Source of the DNA: Syntrophaceae bacterium
GTDB lineage: Bacteria; Desulfobacterota; Syntrophia; Syntrophales; Smithellaceae
DNA length: 64,000 nucleotides
Assembly (NCBI GenBank): GCA_018436925.1
Contig: JAHDKI010000017.1
Span: 88,288-152,287, forward strand
Reading direction: 5' to 3'
Positions 37,873 through 42,841 of the stretch are shown in pieces; the stretch's first letter is position 1; every line of letters begins with the position of its first letter. The notes beneath the pieces are model-generated. The model saw only the letters and a list, made by a program, of their open reading frames with translations. It had not been told where the DNA came from and did no database searches. A program made the position numbers and the translations under genes.

Positions 37873-38988
37873 TCAACCTTCCGCCGCAATCGTCAGCAGC
37901 ATCTGCGTCCAGGTGAGCCCCGCGCCGACAATCGACAAGGCCACGTAGTCTCCCGGCCGCAGTTCGTCCCAGTGCTGGCTTAAAACGGAAGGCGCGCCGG
38001 CGCAGCCGACATTTCCGTACTGGTCGACATTGAACCAGTGGTGCGCAGGCGCGATATTCGCCCGTTCAGCCGCCGTTTGCAGCACGCCGAGATTGGCCTG
38101 ATGGCCGATAAAGAAGATCCGGGTCGGGTCTGCATCCGGAATGAGCGCCAAGATGTTGCGCAGACCGTCGGTGGTTTTGCGGATCGCATACCCTTGCACG
38201 GCGTTGCCGTCCTGATTGAAATATCCCCATCGAGGCACCACCACCTTGTCCCACATGGTCGGTCGGGAATCCATCTCGCAGTCGGTAAAATACTTATTGG
38301 ACGGGATGGTCACCGACAGAATCGACGCGGTGGCGCAATCGCCGAAGAGCACGGCGGAGCGGCGATCGGAATAGTCGATGGTCGTCGTCGCGGCTTCAAT
38401 ATTCGTCACCAAGATATAAGGAGGCAATCTGTCCGGTTTGGTGGCCTCCAAATAGCGCATTTGCACTCCATAAGTGCCGCAGGCCGAATTGATGTCGAAA
38501 CAGGGCACGTCGATTCCCAGGTCCGCCGCCACGGTCGACGCCATGCAGGGCGTCAGAAACTGAGGCAGGGAGCTGCCGGAAATGACCATGCCGATGTCGG
38601 TCGCTTTGAGGCCCGCGCGCTCAAGCGCCATCCGCGCGGCGCGCCCGCCCATCTGAGCGTCGGTGTAAAGACGCACCGTATCCGTTTCCATCGGATTGGC
38701 ATTTTTCGTTTTTTCAAGATAATCCAAAGGAATGACCGTGCGGCGCTCTTCAATGCCGACGCGTTCCATAATCCAGTCCACCGTGGTGCCGATATTCAAG
38801 TCTTCCAGAAACTTATTGCAGATGACATTTTCGGGATGAAAATGGCCGATGCCATGTAAGTATACCATTCTATTGTAGAACTCCTTTTTGGTGTGCGCCG
38901 GCCTGCCGCCGGAAAGTGTGCGACTATAATGAATAGGCTCCCGTCTGTCAATCATTTTGAACAAATCCTTGACACTGGCGCGGTCCAT
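37873..38988 (-). CDS. ketoacyl-ACP synthase III (FabH)-family condensing enzyme
   Basis: Cys-His-Asn triad contexts CFDINSACGTYG, IGHQANLGV and YGNVGCAGAP. A possible 40-aa N-terminal extension; the alternative start is ATG 38868. Confidence 0.8.
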   Translation of the reverse strand: MDRASVKDLFKMIDRREPIHYSRTLSGGRPAHTKKEFYNRMVYLHGIGHFHPENVICNKFLEDLNIGTTVDWIMERVGIEERRTVIPLDYLEKTKNANPMETDTVRLYTDAQMGGRAARMALERAGLKATDIGMVISGSSLPQFLTPCMASTVAADLGIDVPCFDINSACGTYGVQMRYLEATKPDRLPPYILVTNIEAATTTIDYSDRRSAVLFGDCATASILSVTIPSNKYFTDCEMDSRPTMWDKVVVPRWGYFNQDGNAVQGYAIRKTTDGLRNILALIPDADPTRIFFIGHQANLGVLQTAAERANIAPAHHWFNVDQYGNVGCAGAPSVLSQHWDELRPGDYVALSIVGAGLTWTQMLLTIAAEG

Positions 38989-39022: not shown

Positions 39023-39098
39023 GGGGATGTAGCTCAGCTGGGAGAGCGCGGCGTTCGCAATGCCGAGGCCAGGGGTTCGATCCCCCTCATCTCCACCA
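39023..39098 (+). tRNA. tRNA-Ala (anticodon CGC), CCA encoded
   Basis: Manual fold. Acceptor GGGGATG/CATCTCC with the G3:U70 Ala identity pair, anticodon loop TTCGCAA, T arm AGGGG-TTCGATC-CCCCT. Confidence 0.95.
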
Positions 39099-39320
39099 GA
39101 TCCTGCCTTTCAGAATAAAAGGCCTTCAGGATTCTGCCGGAGCCGGCGGGGTTGTTTTTGTCGAGTTGATTGCGCGGCATCGCCCAGGACGAGGCTTTTT
39201 CGTTGACAACCTCCGGGCCTTTCCTATAGGTTTTTATCCCAAAAGAGGCTTTGACCTCCTTTCGCTGCATTTTTTAAAGCCATCGTTTGTTGAAACTGCA
39301 AATCATAAAGGAACCGGTTG

Positions 39321-40595
39321 ATGGTTGACGCGCGCCTGCCCGTCTCGAAAATTGAACAGTCCCTTTCCTTGGGCGATTTACCGTTTGCGGATATTTTAAG
39401 TCCCTATTGTCATAAAGGGGAACGCGCGTTTTCAACCTTTTGGATTCGCCGGGGCGATGCCGCTTCCACATCGTTTCGCGTCGAGTTGGGCGATACCGGA
39501 TCCTCCTGCGTGCGGTTATTCAATGCGGCCAACGCAATGTTGTCGATGCCCGCCGAAACGTGCCCCTATGATCTGACGCCCGCCCAGTGGGGAGACTACG
39601 CGATTTCACCGCATAGTTACATGTCCGTGGGAGACGGCCAGTATCAGATCGGTCTCAACTATTTTAACCGGTTTATGCAACTGGACGTTTATCGTTCGGA
39701 AGTCCGTCTTCTGGATCCGGGTGTGGAGGGAGATTTTTTATCCACAACCAACTGGTTTGACGCCGCGTCGGACGAAATATGGTTTGCCTCCTGGAACGCG
39801 GTCGATGCGATTTACCGCAACATCGACCCGCGGGCGGATGTGACAGTCCGCATTTGGAGAGGGCCCTTGCAGGAGGGCCGCTTCAAACAGGTCTGGGAGG
39901 GGACGCTGGGGGATTCTTTGCATCAGCTGGCCGTCAACCCCGACAAAAAATTTCTCATCGCGGCGGAGTTGGGGCTGCGGTCGGATCGGTTCTGCGCCCC
40001 TGCCAAACTGGTGCCCTCCAGGGTGTTGTTTCTGAGCCTCGAAACAGGCAGGCAGTGGCATCTGGAGATGCCGGCGGCCGCCCACATTGAATTTGATCCG
40101 TCGGATCCGGCTGTGTGTTATCTGTCCGGTCACAACATCGGATTGGTTGGGCCGAAGGTCGGCATCTTCGGACCGGGGATGATTTCAAAGGTGCGTTTGA
40201 CGCCCGACGGTCCGCGGGTGGAAAAAACTTTCAGTCATCCGGACTTTCACCGCATCACGTCGCATATCGTCTTTTCACATCGAGAGAAAACGCTGATTGC
40301 GGCAAGCGGTTATCCCGGATCCGTTTTTCTGATCGATGCCGCCTGCATGGACCTTTTCAAAATTATTGATATGAGAACAGACGATCCGGTGGATACGTCC
40401 TGCGGGCCGCACCTCTGCCGGCAGGACAGCTACGGTCTGTGCGCCTCCGATGACGGAAGACATCTGCTTGCCGTGACCACGGGGGGGCTTCGTGTATTTG
40501 ATCTTGAGACGGGAGGCGCAGTCCTTGAAGAGCCCGTAGAAGGCAACTGCAGTTTCACGGGCCATGCCGCCCGAATTCAGAAAGCGCAAGACTAA
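39321..40595 (+). CDS. hypothetical cytoplasmic protein, beta-propeller-like repeats by eye
   Basis: No signal peptide. Repeated strand-rich blocks (LAVNPDKKFLIAAELG, CYLSGHNIGLVG, TLIAASGYPGSVFLIDA, RHLLAVTTGGLRVFDLETG). No family recognised. Confidence 0.55.
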   Translation: MVDARLPVSKIEQSLSLGDLPFADILSPYCHKGERAFSTFWIRRGDAASTSFRVELGDTGSSCVRLFNAANAMLSMPAETCPYDLTPAQWGDYAISPHSYMSVGDGQYQIGLNYFNRFMQLDVYRSEVRLLDPGVEGDFLSTTNWFDAASDEIWFASWNAVDAIYRNIDPRADVTVRIWRGPLQEGRFKQVWEGTLGDSLHQLAVNPDKKFLIAAELGLRSDRFCAPAKLVPSRVLFLSLETGRQWHLEMPAAAHIEFDPSDPAVCYLSGHNIGLVGPKVGIFGPGMISKVRLTPDGPRVEKTFSHPDFHRITSHIVFSHREKTLIAASGYPGSVFLIDAACMDLFKIIDMRTDDPVDTSCGPHLCRQDSYGLCASDDGRHLLAVTTGGLRVFDLETGGAVLEEPVEGNCSFTGHAARIQKAQD

Positions 40596-41654
40596 ATGAA
40601 TGTCTACCAGATTTTCGCCGATGACGCGCTGAGCTTTGATTTCGTCACGATTTCCGAATTATCCGAACAAGATCCCCGCATCCTGCTTAAGGAGTGCGTC
40701 GGGCGCGGAGGATATGTCCTGCAGGAAAGACTTCTTCTTCCCAAGCCTCTTGCGGCCGGGGCGCAACGTTTTTCAGTCTTCGATCTGGAGCCGGAAAAAT
40801 GCAACGCTCCGCTGATTCTTCTTTCGGATGCCGGCTTGCCTCCGCAGTACAGCGCTTTCCTGGTCAGGCCCCATGACAGCCGGGTGAAAGTGAACAAGAG
40901 GGCCGATTCGATCAAAGTCGAATCCGACGGACTCAATCTTTTTTTCAGCGCGCCTCTTTCGAGCCGCGAAGACAGGACGACTTCATCCTTCACCAAGGCT
41001 TTTGACGAACTGAGCCGCGCTTTGCGCGGTCAAGCCATGATAGAAGCGAACATTGCCCGCACCTGGCTGTATCTGGACGACATCCTGAGCGATTACGGCA
41101 TGCTCAATGAGGCGCGCGAAGCATTTTTCGCGAAGTGGCACCATCCCGAAGAGCATATGATTCCCGCCAGCACCGGCATCGAAGGGCATGCGCGGGCCGG
41201 AGAACCGCTGATCCTTCAGGCCTGTGCCTTCTTTGGAGAACGCTTGTCGATCCGGCAGCAGGCATCGCCGCTTCAGGACGAGGCCACCCGATACGGCAAA
41301 CTCTTCAGCCGCTGTGTCGTGGTTGAACTGCCCCGTCATCGGCTGGTCTATATCAGCGGCACGGCGTCGATCGACCGCACGGGAGCCAGTGTTCATCAGG
41401 GGGATTTCGACCGGCAGATGGTTTTTACGCTGGATGTTTTGCTGGCGATCCTTCGCGAAACGGGCGGAGACTTTTCTCACGTGGGCCAGGCGGCCGTTTA
41501 TCTCAAACGCGGCAAGGATCTTGAAAAAAGCAGAAAGATTCTCAACGAGGCGATGTTTCCGACACAGCGGGCGCTGTTTCACCTCGACACTCCGGTATGC
41601 CGCGATGATTTGCTGTGCGAGATTGAATTGACCGCCGCCATACCGAATCGGTGA
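40596..41654 (+). CDS. RidA(YjgF)-fold protein with N-terminal extra domain; FkbO/Hyg5/XanB2 chorismatase-like architecture
   Basis: 352 aa. IARTWLYLDDILSDYGMLNEAREAFF, IPASTGIEG, LVYISGTASID, C-terminal CRDDLLCEIELTA. The ATG directly abuts the upstream TAA. Confidence 0.5.
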   Translation: MNVYQIFADDALSFDFVTISELSEQDPRILLKECVGRGGYVLQERLLLPKPLAAGAQRFSVFDLEPEKCNAPLILLSDAGLPPQYSAFLVRPHDSRVKVNKRADSIKVESDGLNLFFSAPLSSREDRTTSSFTKAFDELSRALRGQAMIEANIARTWLYLDDILSDYGMLNEAREAFFAKWHHPEEHMIPASTGIEGHARAGEPLILQACAFFGERLSIRQQASPLQDEATRYGKLFSRCVVVELPRHRLVYISGTASIDRTGASVHQGDFDRQMVFTLDVLLAILRETGGDFSHVGQAAVYLKRGKDLEKSRKILNEAMFPTQRALFHLDTPVCRDDLLCEIELTAAIPNR

Positions 41655-41762: not shown

Positions 41763-41794
41763 AAAAAAATCGGGCCGAAGCGGCCCGATTTTTC
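41763..41794. terminator. bidirectional rho-independent terminator
   Basis: AAAAAAAT-CGGGCCG-AAG-CGGCCCG-ATTTTT sits between the convergent genes ending at 41654 and 41801. Confidence 0.7.
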
Positions 41795-41800
41795 AGCAGG

Positions 41801-42841
41801 TTATTTCCGTTTTTTTAGCTTGGCCGAATCGAAAATCCTGGCCAGGTCCCACTTCCTGCGTTTTTTCCAGCTTCCTTTGTGATACGCATAGCTGGCCAGA
41901 AGCGGCAGGGCCGTGGTGGCTTCGGCATAGACCATCTGCTCGCAGGAAGAATCGACCTTGCCCCAGGAATTGGCTTCTTTGAGTGTTGAGCTCGAACAGG
42001 CGCCGTCGCGCACATCGGCGACGGTAATCTGGATCGCGTACTTGTGCATCGGCACGTCTTTGCCGAGGATCTCGGCGCACACGACCGTGTCCTGCGCGAA
42101 GTTCTTGGGAACGCCTCCGCCGATCATCAGAAGCCCGGTCGTTCCCGCATGGATCTTGATCTGCGTCAGTTCCAGAAAATCCTTGACCGAGTCAATCGAC
42201 AGATGCTTTTCGGGTCGCTCATACTGGTGCAGCACCAGACCGAAGCCGGCGGAGCTGTCGGAAAAGGCCGGGCAGAAAATCGGGACATTGTGTTCATAGG
42301 CCGCCTGAACCAGAGAATGCTTTTTCCTGGCGTTTTTCACCAGATACCTGCCCATTTCGGCGATGAATTCCCGCGAGGAATAGGGGCGGGGTTCCAGGGC
42401 GTCGGCGATCTTTTTGATGGTTTTGTCACAGGCCTGCAGATCGTCTTCGCTGATGAAGGTGTCGTAAATGCGGTCGATGTAAAGTTCTCGCAACTGCTTG
42501 TCGTCGACAAACGGCGTGCCCTGGTAATGCTTAAATCCCAGAGCCTCGAAGAAATCCATGTCCACAATGGACGCGCCGGTGGCGACAATCGCGTCCACCA
42601 TGTTGTTTTGGACCAGATCGACATACGCCTGCATACAGCCGGCGGCGCTGGTCGAGCCGGCCAACGTGAGGATCACCGCGCACTTTTTCTCTTTCAGCAT
42701 CCGGTCATAGATGTCGGCGGCATTGGCCAAGTCTCGGGCGGAAAAAGACATCTTTTTCATGGCTTCGATAATGTCCACCGCATTGATGGCTTTAATGTCG
42801 ATATGCTCGACGGCTTTTTTAAGAAAATCCTTCTTTTTCAT
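41801..42841 (-). CDS. deoxyhypusine-synthase-like protein
   Basis: 346 aa. ILTLAGSTSAAGCMQAYVDLVQNNMVDAIVATGASIVD and MIGGGVPKNF match the DHS family pattern. Confidence 0.8.
   Translation of the reverse strand: MKKKDFLKKAVEHIDIKAINAVDIIEAMKKMSFSARDLANAADIYDRMLKEKKCAVILTLAGSTSAAGCMQAYVDLVQNNMVDAIVATGASIVDMDFFEALGFKHYQGTPFVDDKQLRELYIDRIYDTFISEDDLQACDKTIKKIADALEPRPYSSREFIAEMGRYLVKNARKKHSLVQAAYEHNVPIFCPAFSDSSAGFGLVLHQYERPEKHLSIDSVKDFLELTQIKIHAGTTGLLMIGGGVPKNFAQDTVVCAEILGKDVPMHKYAIQITVADVRDGACSSSTLKEANSWGKVDSSCEQMVYAEATTALPLLASYAYHKGSWKKRRKWDLARIFDSAKLKKRK

Follow-up and report, generated by a model that had tools for sequence, protein, structure and literature searches.

The gene pair and its linkage

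Within a 64,000-nucleotide (nt) stretch of the genome of a Syntrophaceae bacterium (assembly GCA_018436925.1, contig JAHDKI010000017.1, positions 88,288 to 152,287 of the forward strand; here called the window), two genes stand in tandem between tRNA-Ala(CGC) and a two-way terminator (Table 1). The first, open reading frame 1 (ORF1), encodes a predicted β-propeller protein that belongs to no named family, and the second, ORF2, encodes a divergent homologue of the single-chain chorismatases FkbO and Hyg5. The TAA of ORF1 (40593-40595) abuts the ATG of ORF2, with no nucleotide between them, and a TTG one codon 5' of the ORF1 ATG provides an alternative start that would give a protein of 425 amino acids (aa). 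An earlier description of this DNA, made from its letters alone (the original prediction), had pointed to the tRNA gene, the TAA-ATG abutment, the 424- and 352-aa reading frames, the terminator and, in ORF2, the motifs PASTGIEG, LVYISGTASID and EIELTA, all of which are present in the sequence.

The pairing recurs in other genomes. An alignment-based scan, restricted to one genome per species, gave 21 loci in which both families were then called by hidden Markov model (a scan of genome contigs with a single ORF1 protein as query gave no loci). In 19 of them the ORF1 homologue is followed immediately by an ORF2 homologue, mostly with an intergenic gap of -4 to +4 nt, and because so many independent loci keep the gene order, the arrangement goes beyond chance. 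The two remaining loci have either one glycosyltransferase gene between the propeller and the chorismatase-like gene (locus L020) or no ORF2 homologue near the propeller gene (L021). Two of the 19 adjacent loci are cut by a contig end, one has a broken ORF2 copy and one a split ORF1 copy: in Smithella sp. D17 (L010, 9274-9934) the ORF2 orthologue is in two pieces with the middle missing, and in L014 (7998-9270) a frameshift divides the ORF1 orthologue, either of which may reflect decay or assembly errors. Among the 17 complete pairs, pairwise distances for ORF1 and ORF2 are correlated (r = 0.91), and none of 2000 Mantel permutations reached so high a value. The original prediction had named beforehand two observations that would speak against it, namely a generic RidA protein lacking the chorismatase N-domain and an absence of linkage in other genomes; what we found was linkage, together with the chorismatase fold described below.

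More remote relatives of both families repeat the arrangement. Downstream of the propeller protein P0284, which is 18% identical to ORF1, comes a 403-aa protein with a match to the ORF2 family profile (E = 5e-41), and the 499-aa propeller relative P0343 has a divergent 332-aa neighbour that matches it too (E = 7e-45). Thus, propellers only 18-20% identical again adjoin chorismatase-like genes, and the partnership is a deep one. Both P0284 and P0343 sit amid genes for radical SAM/SPASM proteins, B12-radical SAM proteins and methyltransferases. In locus L029 (6001-8916), a fused propeller gene precedes a chorismatase-like gene and has on its 5' side three methyltransferase genes, a B12-radical SAM gene and a pair of radical SAM/SPASM genes, one of which is truncated where the locus ends; in L033 (4938-12708), P0343 and the 332-aa gene are followed by three radical SAM genes, of which one is of SPASM and another of B12 type, and among these is a gene whose product joins an orotate-phosphoribosyltransferase-like N-terminus with a PQQ-like propeller. 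The radical SAM neighbours gave generic SPASM and B12-radical SAM matches, with no informative equivalog. P0269, P0272 and P0284 (566-595 aa) have in common an N-terminal extension of about 200 aa, which in P0284 scores 22.5 bits with the PglD_N model (sub-threshold; cut-off 23.4).

As to the immediate setting, the tRNA is context only and lies outside the module. The gap of 222 nt between it and ORF1 contains no riboswitch or leader element detectable with Rfam, but it does contain a hairpin with a T-run which, as a pattern match, would separate the tRNA transcript from the pair. The terminator downstream of ORF2, found by direct reading of the sequence and unlisted in the consensus terminator scan, could serve both the pair and the convergent gene beyond it. 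The G+C content of the pair (0.56-0.58) is the same as that of its surroundings.

Table 1. Features in and around the gene pair (positions in the window)
Feature	Position	Strand	Basis or description
FabH-like gene	37873-38988	-	
tRNA-Ala(CGC)	39023-39098	+	ARAGORN; Rfam tRNA, 63.6 bits
Terminator-like hairpin and T-run after the tRNA	39130-39163 (hairpin 39130-39153)	+	Consensus scan: 10-bp stem, then GTTTTTGTCG; pattern match only
Shine-Dalgarno-like AAGGA	39308-39312	+	8 nt 5' of the ORF1 ATG; direct sequence reading
ORF1	39321-40595	+	424 aa from ATG; predicted cytoplasmic seven-bladed β-propeller, unnamed family
ORF2	40596-41654	+	352 aa; divergent single-chain chorismatase homologue, predicted FkbO/Hyg5 fold
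Two-way intrinsic terminator	41763-41793 (hairpin 41769-41789)	both	A7, 9-bp G+C-rich stem, 3-nt loop, T5
Deoxyhypusine-synthase-like (DHS-like) gene	41801-42841	-	

Folds and conserved residues of the two proteins

ORF2 has a single above-threshold match in Pfam, to the RidA family (PF01042; aa 247-348, 43.5 bits, cut-off 27.3), and source annotations label its relatives as RidA. When PDB sequences were searched with phmmer, FkbO (4BPS, E = 4.7e-7) and Hyg5 (5AG3, E = 5.9e-7) were found, and otherwise only RidA relatives. An AlphaFold2 model, built on 33 homologues and with a mean predicted local distance difference test score (pLDDT) of 94, was aligned by Foldseek with 5ag3, 4bps and 5a3k at E = 1e-19 to 1e-21 and template modelling (TM) scores of 0.65-0.73 over about 370 columns, the best whole-chain matches being Hyg5 and FkbO (E about 1e-21, TM 0.68-0.73); the next tier consisted of single-domain RidA proteins (TMq 0.32, TMt about 0.8). 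Because the whole chain overlays Hyg5 and FkbO, with a sharp drop thereafter to RidA, the model shows a complete chorismatase architecture, that is, a single chain resembling a RidA trimer. The FkbO/Hyg5 architecture that the original prediction had proposed from length and an additional N-terminal domain is thereby upheld at full length (E = 1e-21, TM about 0.7), and with it the catalytic residues.

In a HMMER alignment, E342 of ORF2 falls on E334 of Hyg5, in the motif CR(S/D)DLL(V/C)EIE. In Hyg5, Glu-334 is the essential acid that protonates the enolpyruvyl methylene (PMC7170507). Likewise, G194 (in PASTG), G255 (SGTAS) and C335 (VCRDD) align with Hyg5 G173, G240 and C327, a Gly/Gly/Cys combination characteristic of the CH-II (Hyg5) subfamily (G164, G231 and C318 in Nat-Hyg5; PMC7170507); this comparison covered Hyg5 and FkbO. 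How these residues are kept was judged from an alignment (A2) of the close ORF2 family with a much larger family of relatives of about 370 aa, the homologue search having given 2341 matches. Invariant in it are R155-T156-W157, Y167, N171, R174, PAST (190-193), Y233, R239, SGTA (254-257, and so G255), K304, C335, R336 and E342, while G194 is kept in at least 90% of sequences. R155-T156-W157, Y233, R239 and R336 correspond to FkbO/Hyg5 residues in the alignments, and the N-terminal 125 residues are found only in ORF2's own, propeller-linked subfamily. In the alignment with 5yu2, a 130-aa RidA homologue, the Arg of 'PARS' falls on the Leu of 'RALF' in ORF2. The equivalent Arg105 of Escherichia coli TdcF is essential for imine hydrolysis by RidA proteins (PMC4433059). 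With this Arg replaced by Leu, and with 352 aa against the subunits of about 125 aa that make up RidA homotrimers, ORF2 lacks these features of a RidA imine deaminase. It is the only chorismatase-like gene in this genome (no second copy was found), and chorismate synthase is present.

For ORF1, there was no NCBIfam match and, in Pfam at E <=1, only a spurious match to AlgF; two profiles of the family (A1 and A3) gave only noise against PDB sequences (E >=0.1). Its homologues form 117 clusters at 90% identity, nearly all unnamed, with source labels that include Smithella, Smithellaceae, Nitrospirae, Lentisphaerales and Desulfuromonadaceae, and a profile search of 1.84 billion representatives extended the superfamily to 236 clusters; ten distant relatives that were scanned reached no Pfam family cut-off. 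The lack of an N-terminal hydrophobic stretch suggests that the protein is cytoplasmic. Its AlphaFold2 model (pLDDT 90, pTM 0.90) has the strand pattern of a seven-bladed propeller closed by N-terminal strands, and Foldseek matched it only to generic propellers, the best over the whole chain being the apocarotenoid oxygenase 2biw (TMq 0.57, 11% identity), with NirN, WD40 proteins and thiocyanate dehydrogenase lower down; a viral structure library gave only generic WD40 matches. The original prediction of a propeller-like protein without a family name therefore stands. Two more specific assignments were considered and rejected: a YncE/YVTN-type propeller (one source's label for the relative P0113), as ORF1 matches neither PF21783 (YNCE) nor PF10282 (Lactonase), and a carotenoid/stilbene cleavage oxygenase of the RPE65 family, as ORF1 has no Pfam match and its resemblance to 2biw is at the level of fold only.

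About 45 positions are invariant in the A1 alignment of ORF1 homologues, among them H98, H201, H255, H271, H315, H364, C366 and H415, together with D198, E216, D259, R166 and R311. In relatives only 16-28% identical, H98, H255, H271, R311 and H415 are still invariant, and H201 nearly so. In blades I, III, IV, V, VI and VII the innermost predicted strand begins with, or directly after, one of six of these histidines (H98, H201, H255, H315, H364 and H415), and N144 takes the corresponding position in the remaining blade. From the geometry of the fold, this suggests that the conserved histidines ring one mouth of the central channel, where they probably form a metal-binding active site. An O2-dependent reaction seems unlikely, as the hosts belong to lineages of strict anaerobes.

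Distribution and neighbours

The pair is accessory and patchily distributed over several phyla. It was present in five of 201 genomes in a sample of the order and in none of six other genomes of the genus, and by source labels its hosts are Smithella/Syntrophaceae, Nitrospirae, Lentisphaerales, Desulfuromonadales and Planctomycetia. Its commonest direct neighbour is a gene for a TupA-like ATP-grasp protein, immediately upstream in eight loci from several lineages; a YegS-like lipid kinase gene recurs in Smithella; and downstream, in several loci, are genes for a PaaK/DVU_1553-like adenylating enzyme, an LdmS-like ATP-grasp, a sugar-transfer-associated ATP-grasp, a PglD-type acetyltransferase and a sugar-phosphate transferase. 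Homologues of some of these occur away from the pair in the present genome: contig C2 has a PaaK-like gene (57% identical) with an ATP-grasp_ST gene after it (122197-124589), and on contig C5 an LdmS-like gene (47% identical) comes after a PglD-type gene, together with weaker PaaK-like matches (92275-101073). Members of the broader chorismatase-like family have other neighbours. One of them, P0235 (L022, 5897-13600), is divergent from a DAHP synthase gene and has on its downstream side genes for HZS_alpha-like, FG-GAP and multihaem-cytochrome/propeller proteins, and another lies near a UbiA prenyltransferase gene (L025).

On the far side of the tRNA is the FabH-like gene that the original prediction had connected with the pair. 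This link was rejected: no FabH homologue was found near the pair in any of the 21 loci checked, and a genome of the same genus that lacks the pair has an 84% identical orthologue. The gene falls under all curated FabH cut-offs (best NF006829, 162 bits against 249), and has a 55% identical paralogue on contig C25 and faint matches to DarB/StlD-type ketosynthases. The adjacency to a tRNA fared no better, as no tRNA adjoins relatives of the pair in the other loci or in the regions examined in genus relatives. The convergent DHS-like gene matches NF002699, the equivalog for 1,9-bis(guanidino)-5-aza-nonane synthase (598 bits, cut-off 500), and has orthologues 86-89% identical in all six same-genus genomes, so it belongs to the conserved core of the genus and has a specific function predicted for it; in genus relatives its orthologues and those of the FabH-like gene lie on separate contigs and are not neighbours. 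A tRNA-linked genomic island was likewise considered and rejected, after a search for an empty site in same-genus genomes: the pair side of the DHS-like gene is not syntenic there, and no tRNA was found in it, so that no clean insertion boundary can be defined.

Possible functions and comparison with known systems

That the two genes make or modify an aryl or alicyclic acid, as originally suggested, is a reasonable inference. The reading we favour, with a probability of roughly 0.5, is that they act as a two-enzyme module, self-contained and inherited together, that has a promoter region and a terminator of its own and makes a chorismate-derived acid for variable ligases. As to substrate, product and order of steps, we infer, by analogy with Hyg5, that E342 of ORF2 would protonate the enolpyruvyl methylene of chorismate, and that pyruvate would then be released to leave a hydroxylated benzoate or a cyclohexadiene carboxylate, the Gly/Gly/Cys signature favouring 3-hydroxybenzoate-type (Hyg5-type) chemistry. 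ORF1 would carry out a tightly coupled and probably metal-dependent second step, with either the ring product or a reactive intermediate of ORF2 as its substrate, and the two proteins would probably act as a complex. In other genomes, the acid might be passed to a TupA-like ATP-grasp, an LdmS-like ATP-grasp or a PaaK-like adenylating enzyme, which would attach it to an amine or to a surface polymer. Aromatic precursor chemistry would fit the occurrence of the broader chorismatase-like family beside DAHP synthase and near UbiA.

Several observations weigh against this reading. No ligase gene adjoins the pair in the present genome, in which the ligase homologues are on other contigs. Propeller relatives in L021, L032 and L034 have no chorismatase-like gene nearby (in L034, 3061-7350, the propeller gene P0250 is divergent from genes resembling a GH3-family acyl-acid amido synthetase and a muconate cycloisomerase of the enolase superfamily). 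The metal site of ORF1 is deduced solely from where conserved residues fall in a predicted secondary structure. Lastly, ORF2 does not reach the cut-off of the chorismatase N-domain model (PF21168; aa 100-195, 22.1 bits, cut-off 27) or of TIGR04444 (model positions 80-308 of 311, 48.2 bits, cut-off 325), and Foldseek puts its identity to solved chorismatases at 17-19%. With scores so far under the family cut-offs, ORF2 is a divergent relative of the chorismatases which curated models do not name, and these scores and the low identity mean that it may therefore have a different substrate.

Such a substrate is the basis of an alternative that we regard as unlikely, in which the pair acts on an enol-ether, enolpyruvyl or imine-bearing compound other than chorismate (a modified sugar or sugar-peptide, for example) in the decoration of surface glycoconjugates, with the ATP-grasp proteins at the core of the pathway. 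This would suit the Smithella loci, which string the pair together with a YegS-like lipid kinase, a short-chain dehydrogenase/reductase, an LdmS-like ATP-grasp, a sugar-transfer-associated ATP-grasp (PF14397), a NeuD/PglD-type acetyltransferase and a polyprenyl glycosylphosphotransferase; it would also suit the frequency of TupA-like neighbours, the N-terminal extension of P0269, P0272 and P0284 (with its sub-threshold PglD_N match in P0284) and the shortfall of ORF2 from curated chorismatase cut-offs. However, ORF2 retains the chorismatase catalytic Glu, the Gly/Gly/Cys residues and several of the arginines, its broader family lies beside DAHP synthase and near UbiA, and in the window, as in several other loci, the pair occurs without any glycan gene.

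It is rather improbable, in our view, that ORF2 is the sole enzyme, a hydroxybenzoate-forming chorismatase, and that the propeller is a non-catalytic partner, serving as a scaffold, as a regulator or as a carrier in which the product is sequestered. Known chorismatases do act alone (PMC7170507), non-enzymatic WD40-type propellers make up most of the structural neighbours of ORF1, and the subfamily-specific 125 N-terminal residues of ORF2 could be a docking surface. ORF1, however, has roughly 45 invariant positions, and those occupied by eight His, a single Cys and several Asp, Glu and Arg are regularly spaced over the inner strands; even at 16-20% identity, four of the His are invariant and H201 is nearly so, a pattern more typical of an active or metal site than of a binding scaffold. 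Still less probable is a catabolic or detoxifying role, the degradation of some exogenous aromatic or alicyclic enol-ether compound: the patchy, accessory distribution (five of 201 genomes) and the origin of the Smithella, Smithellaceae and Syntrophaceae hosts in subsurface, hydrocarbon and sediment samples, according to source records, would accord with it, whereas the conserved neighbours are ligases of biosynthetic type and do not include transporter, CoA-transferase or ring-reduction genes, and distant members are found in radical SAM and methyltransferase gene clusters. Fortuitous adjacency, in which ORF2 would be a generic RidA-type imine deaminase and the hypothetical protein beside it unrelated (as the sole above-threshold match to PF01042 and the RidA annotation of relatives might suggest), is excluded by the full chorismatase fold, the Leu at the RidA Arg105 position, the 19 adjacent loci of 21 and the correlation of 0.91.

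Returning to the two-enzyme module, a bolder extension, which we put forward tentatively as something less than probable, is that with ORF1 we might have the first representative of a class of cytoplasmic metalloenzymes, new to science, that work with chorismatase-like enzymes, the two jointly making a novel chorismate-derived small molecule (a cofactor, a signal or a surface-decorating acid) in anaerobes, and that the two-gene form might be a minimal version of the larger radical SAM cassettes of distant relatives. Here a divergent branch of the chorismatases has been coupled, over a long evolutionary span, to a propeller superfamily that lacks a name, a solved structure and a known function, and the pairing is the first functional anchor for this orphan superfamily of 236 clusters; it would also point to an unrecognised chorismate-derived metabolite in anaerobic lineages. 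What is new is a chorismatase homologue with a near-constant, uncharacterized partner (the literature collection searched has no paper combining 'chorismatase' and 'propeller'). As both proteins appear soluble and the candidate substrate is commercially available, the hypothesis is directly testable in vitro.

Among enzymes with a metal at the centre of a seven-bladed propeller, the closest parallels to ORF1 are apocarotenoid oxygenase (2BIW), which has a four-His Fe site, thiocyanate dehydrogenase (8Q9Y) and NirN (6RTD). They are similar to ORF1 in size and in having conserved His on innermost strands around the axis, but they have no detectable sequence relationship to it, and the TM scores reflect generic propeller similarity.

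For ORF2, the comparison with RidA/YjgF proteins extends to its C-terminal domain (aa 247-348), which matches PF01042 and overlays single-domain RidA structures, but where RidA proteins assemble as homotrimers from 125-aa subunits, ORF2 has three RidA-like domains in one chain. The chorismatases known so far stand alone and supply starter units to natural-product pathways of actinomycetes and Xanthomonas. Hyg5 and Nat-Hyg5, of type CH-II, are 3-hydroxybenzoate synthases (EC 4.1.3.45; PDB 5AG3, 5A3K), and FkbO, of type CH-I, forms 4,5-dihydroxycyclohexa-1,5-dienecarboxylate (PDB 4BPS). FkbO has the same fold as ORF2 (E = 1.4e-20, TM 0.69-0.72) and an identical catalytic Glu and Arg motif, but has Ala at the second and third signature positions (SATAG against SGTAS, and AREDLL against CRDDLL), where ORF2 and Hyg5 have Gly and Cys, so that ORF2 is nearer to the Hyg5 type at these positions. 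Hyg5 is, like ORF2, a single chain (about 340 aa) resembling a RidA trimer (TM about 0.7), and the two have in common the catalytic Glu, Gly/Gly/Cys and the motifs R-x-W, PA(A/S)TGI, Y..F.R and CR.DLL.EIE. They differ in that the N-terminal 125 residues of ORF2 are unlike Hyg5, in their low overall identity (17-19%), and in their hosts, the ORF2 family being found in anaerobic, mostly uncultured bacteria and Hyg5 in polyketide synthase/non-ribosomal peptide synthetase clusters of actinomycetes. The known chorismatases have no propeller partner, whereas members of the ORF2 family are nearly always paired with a propeller gene.

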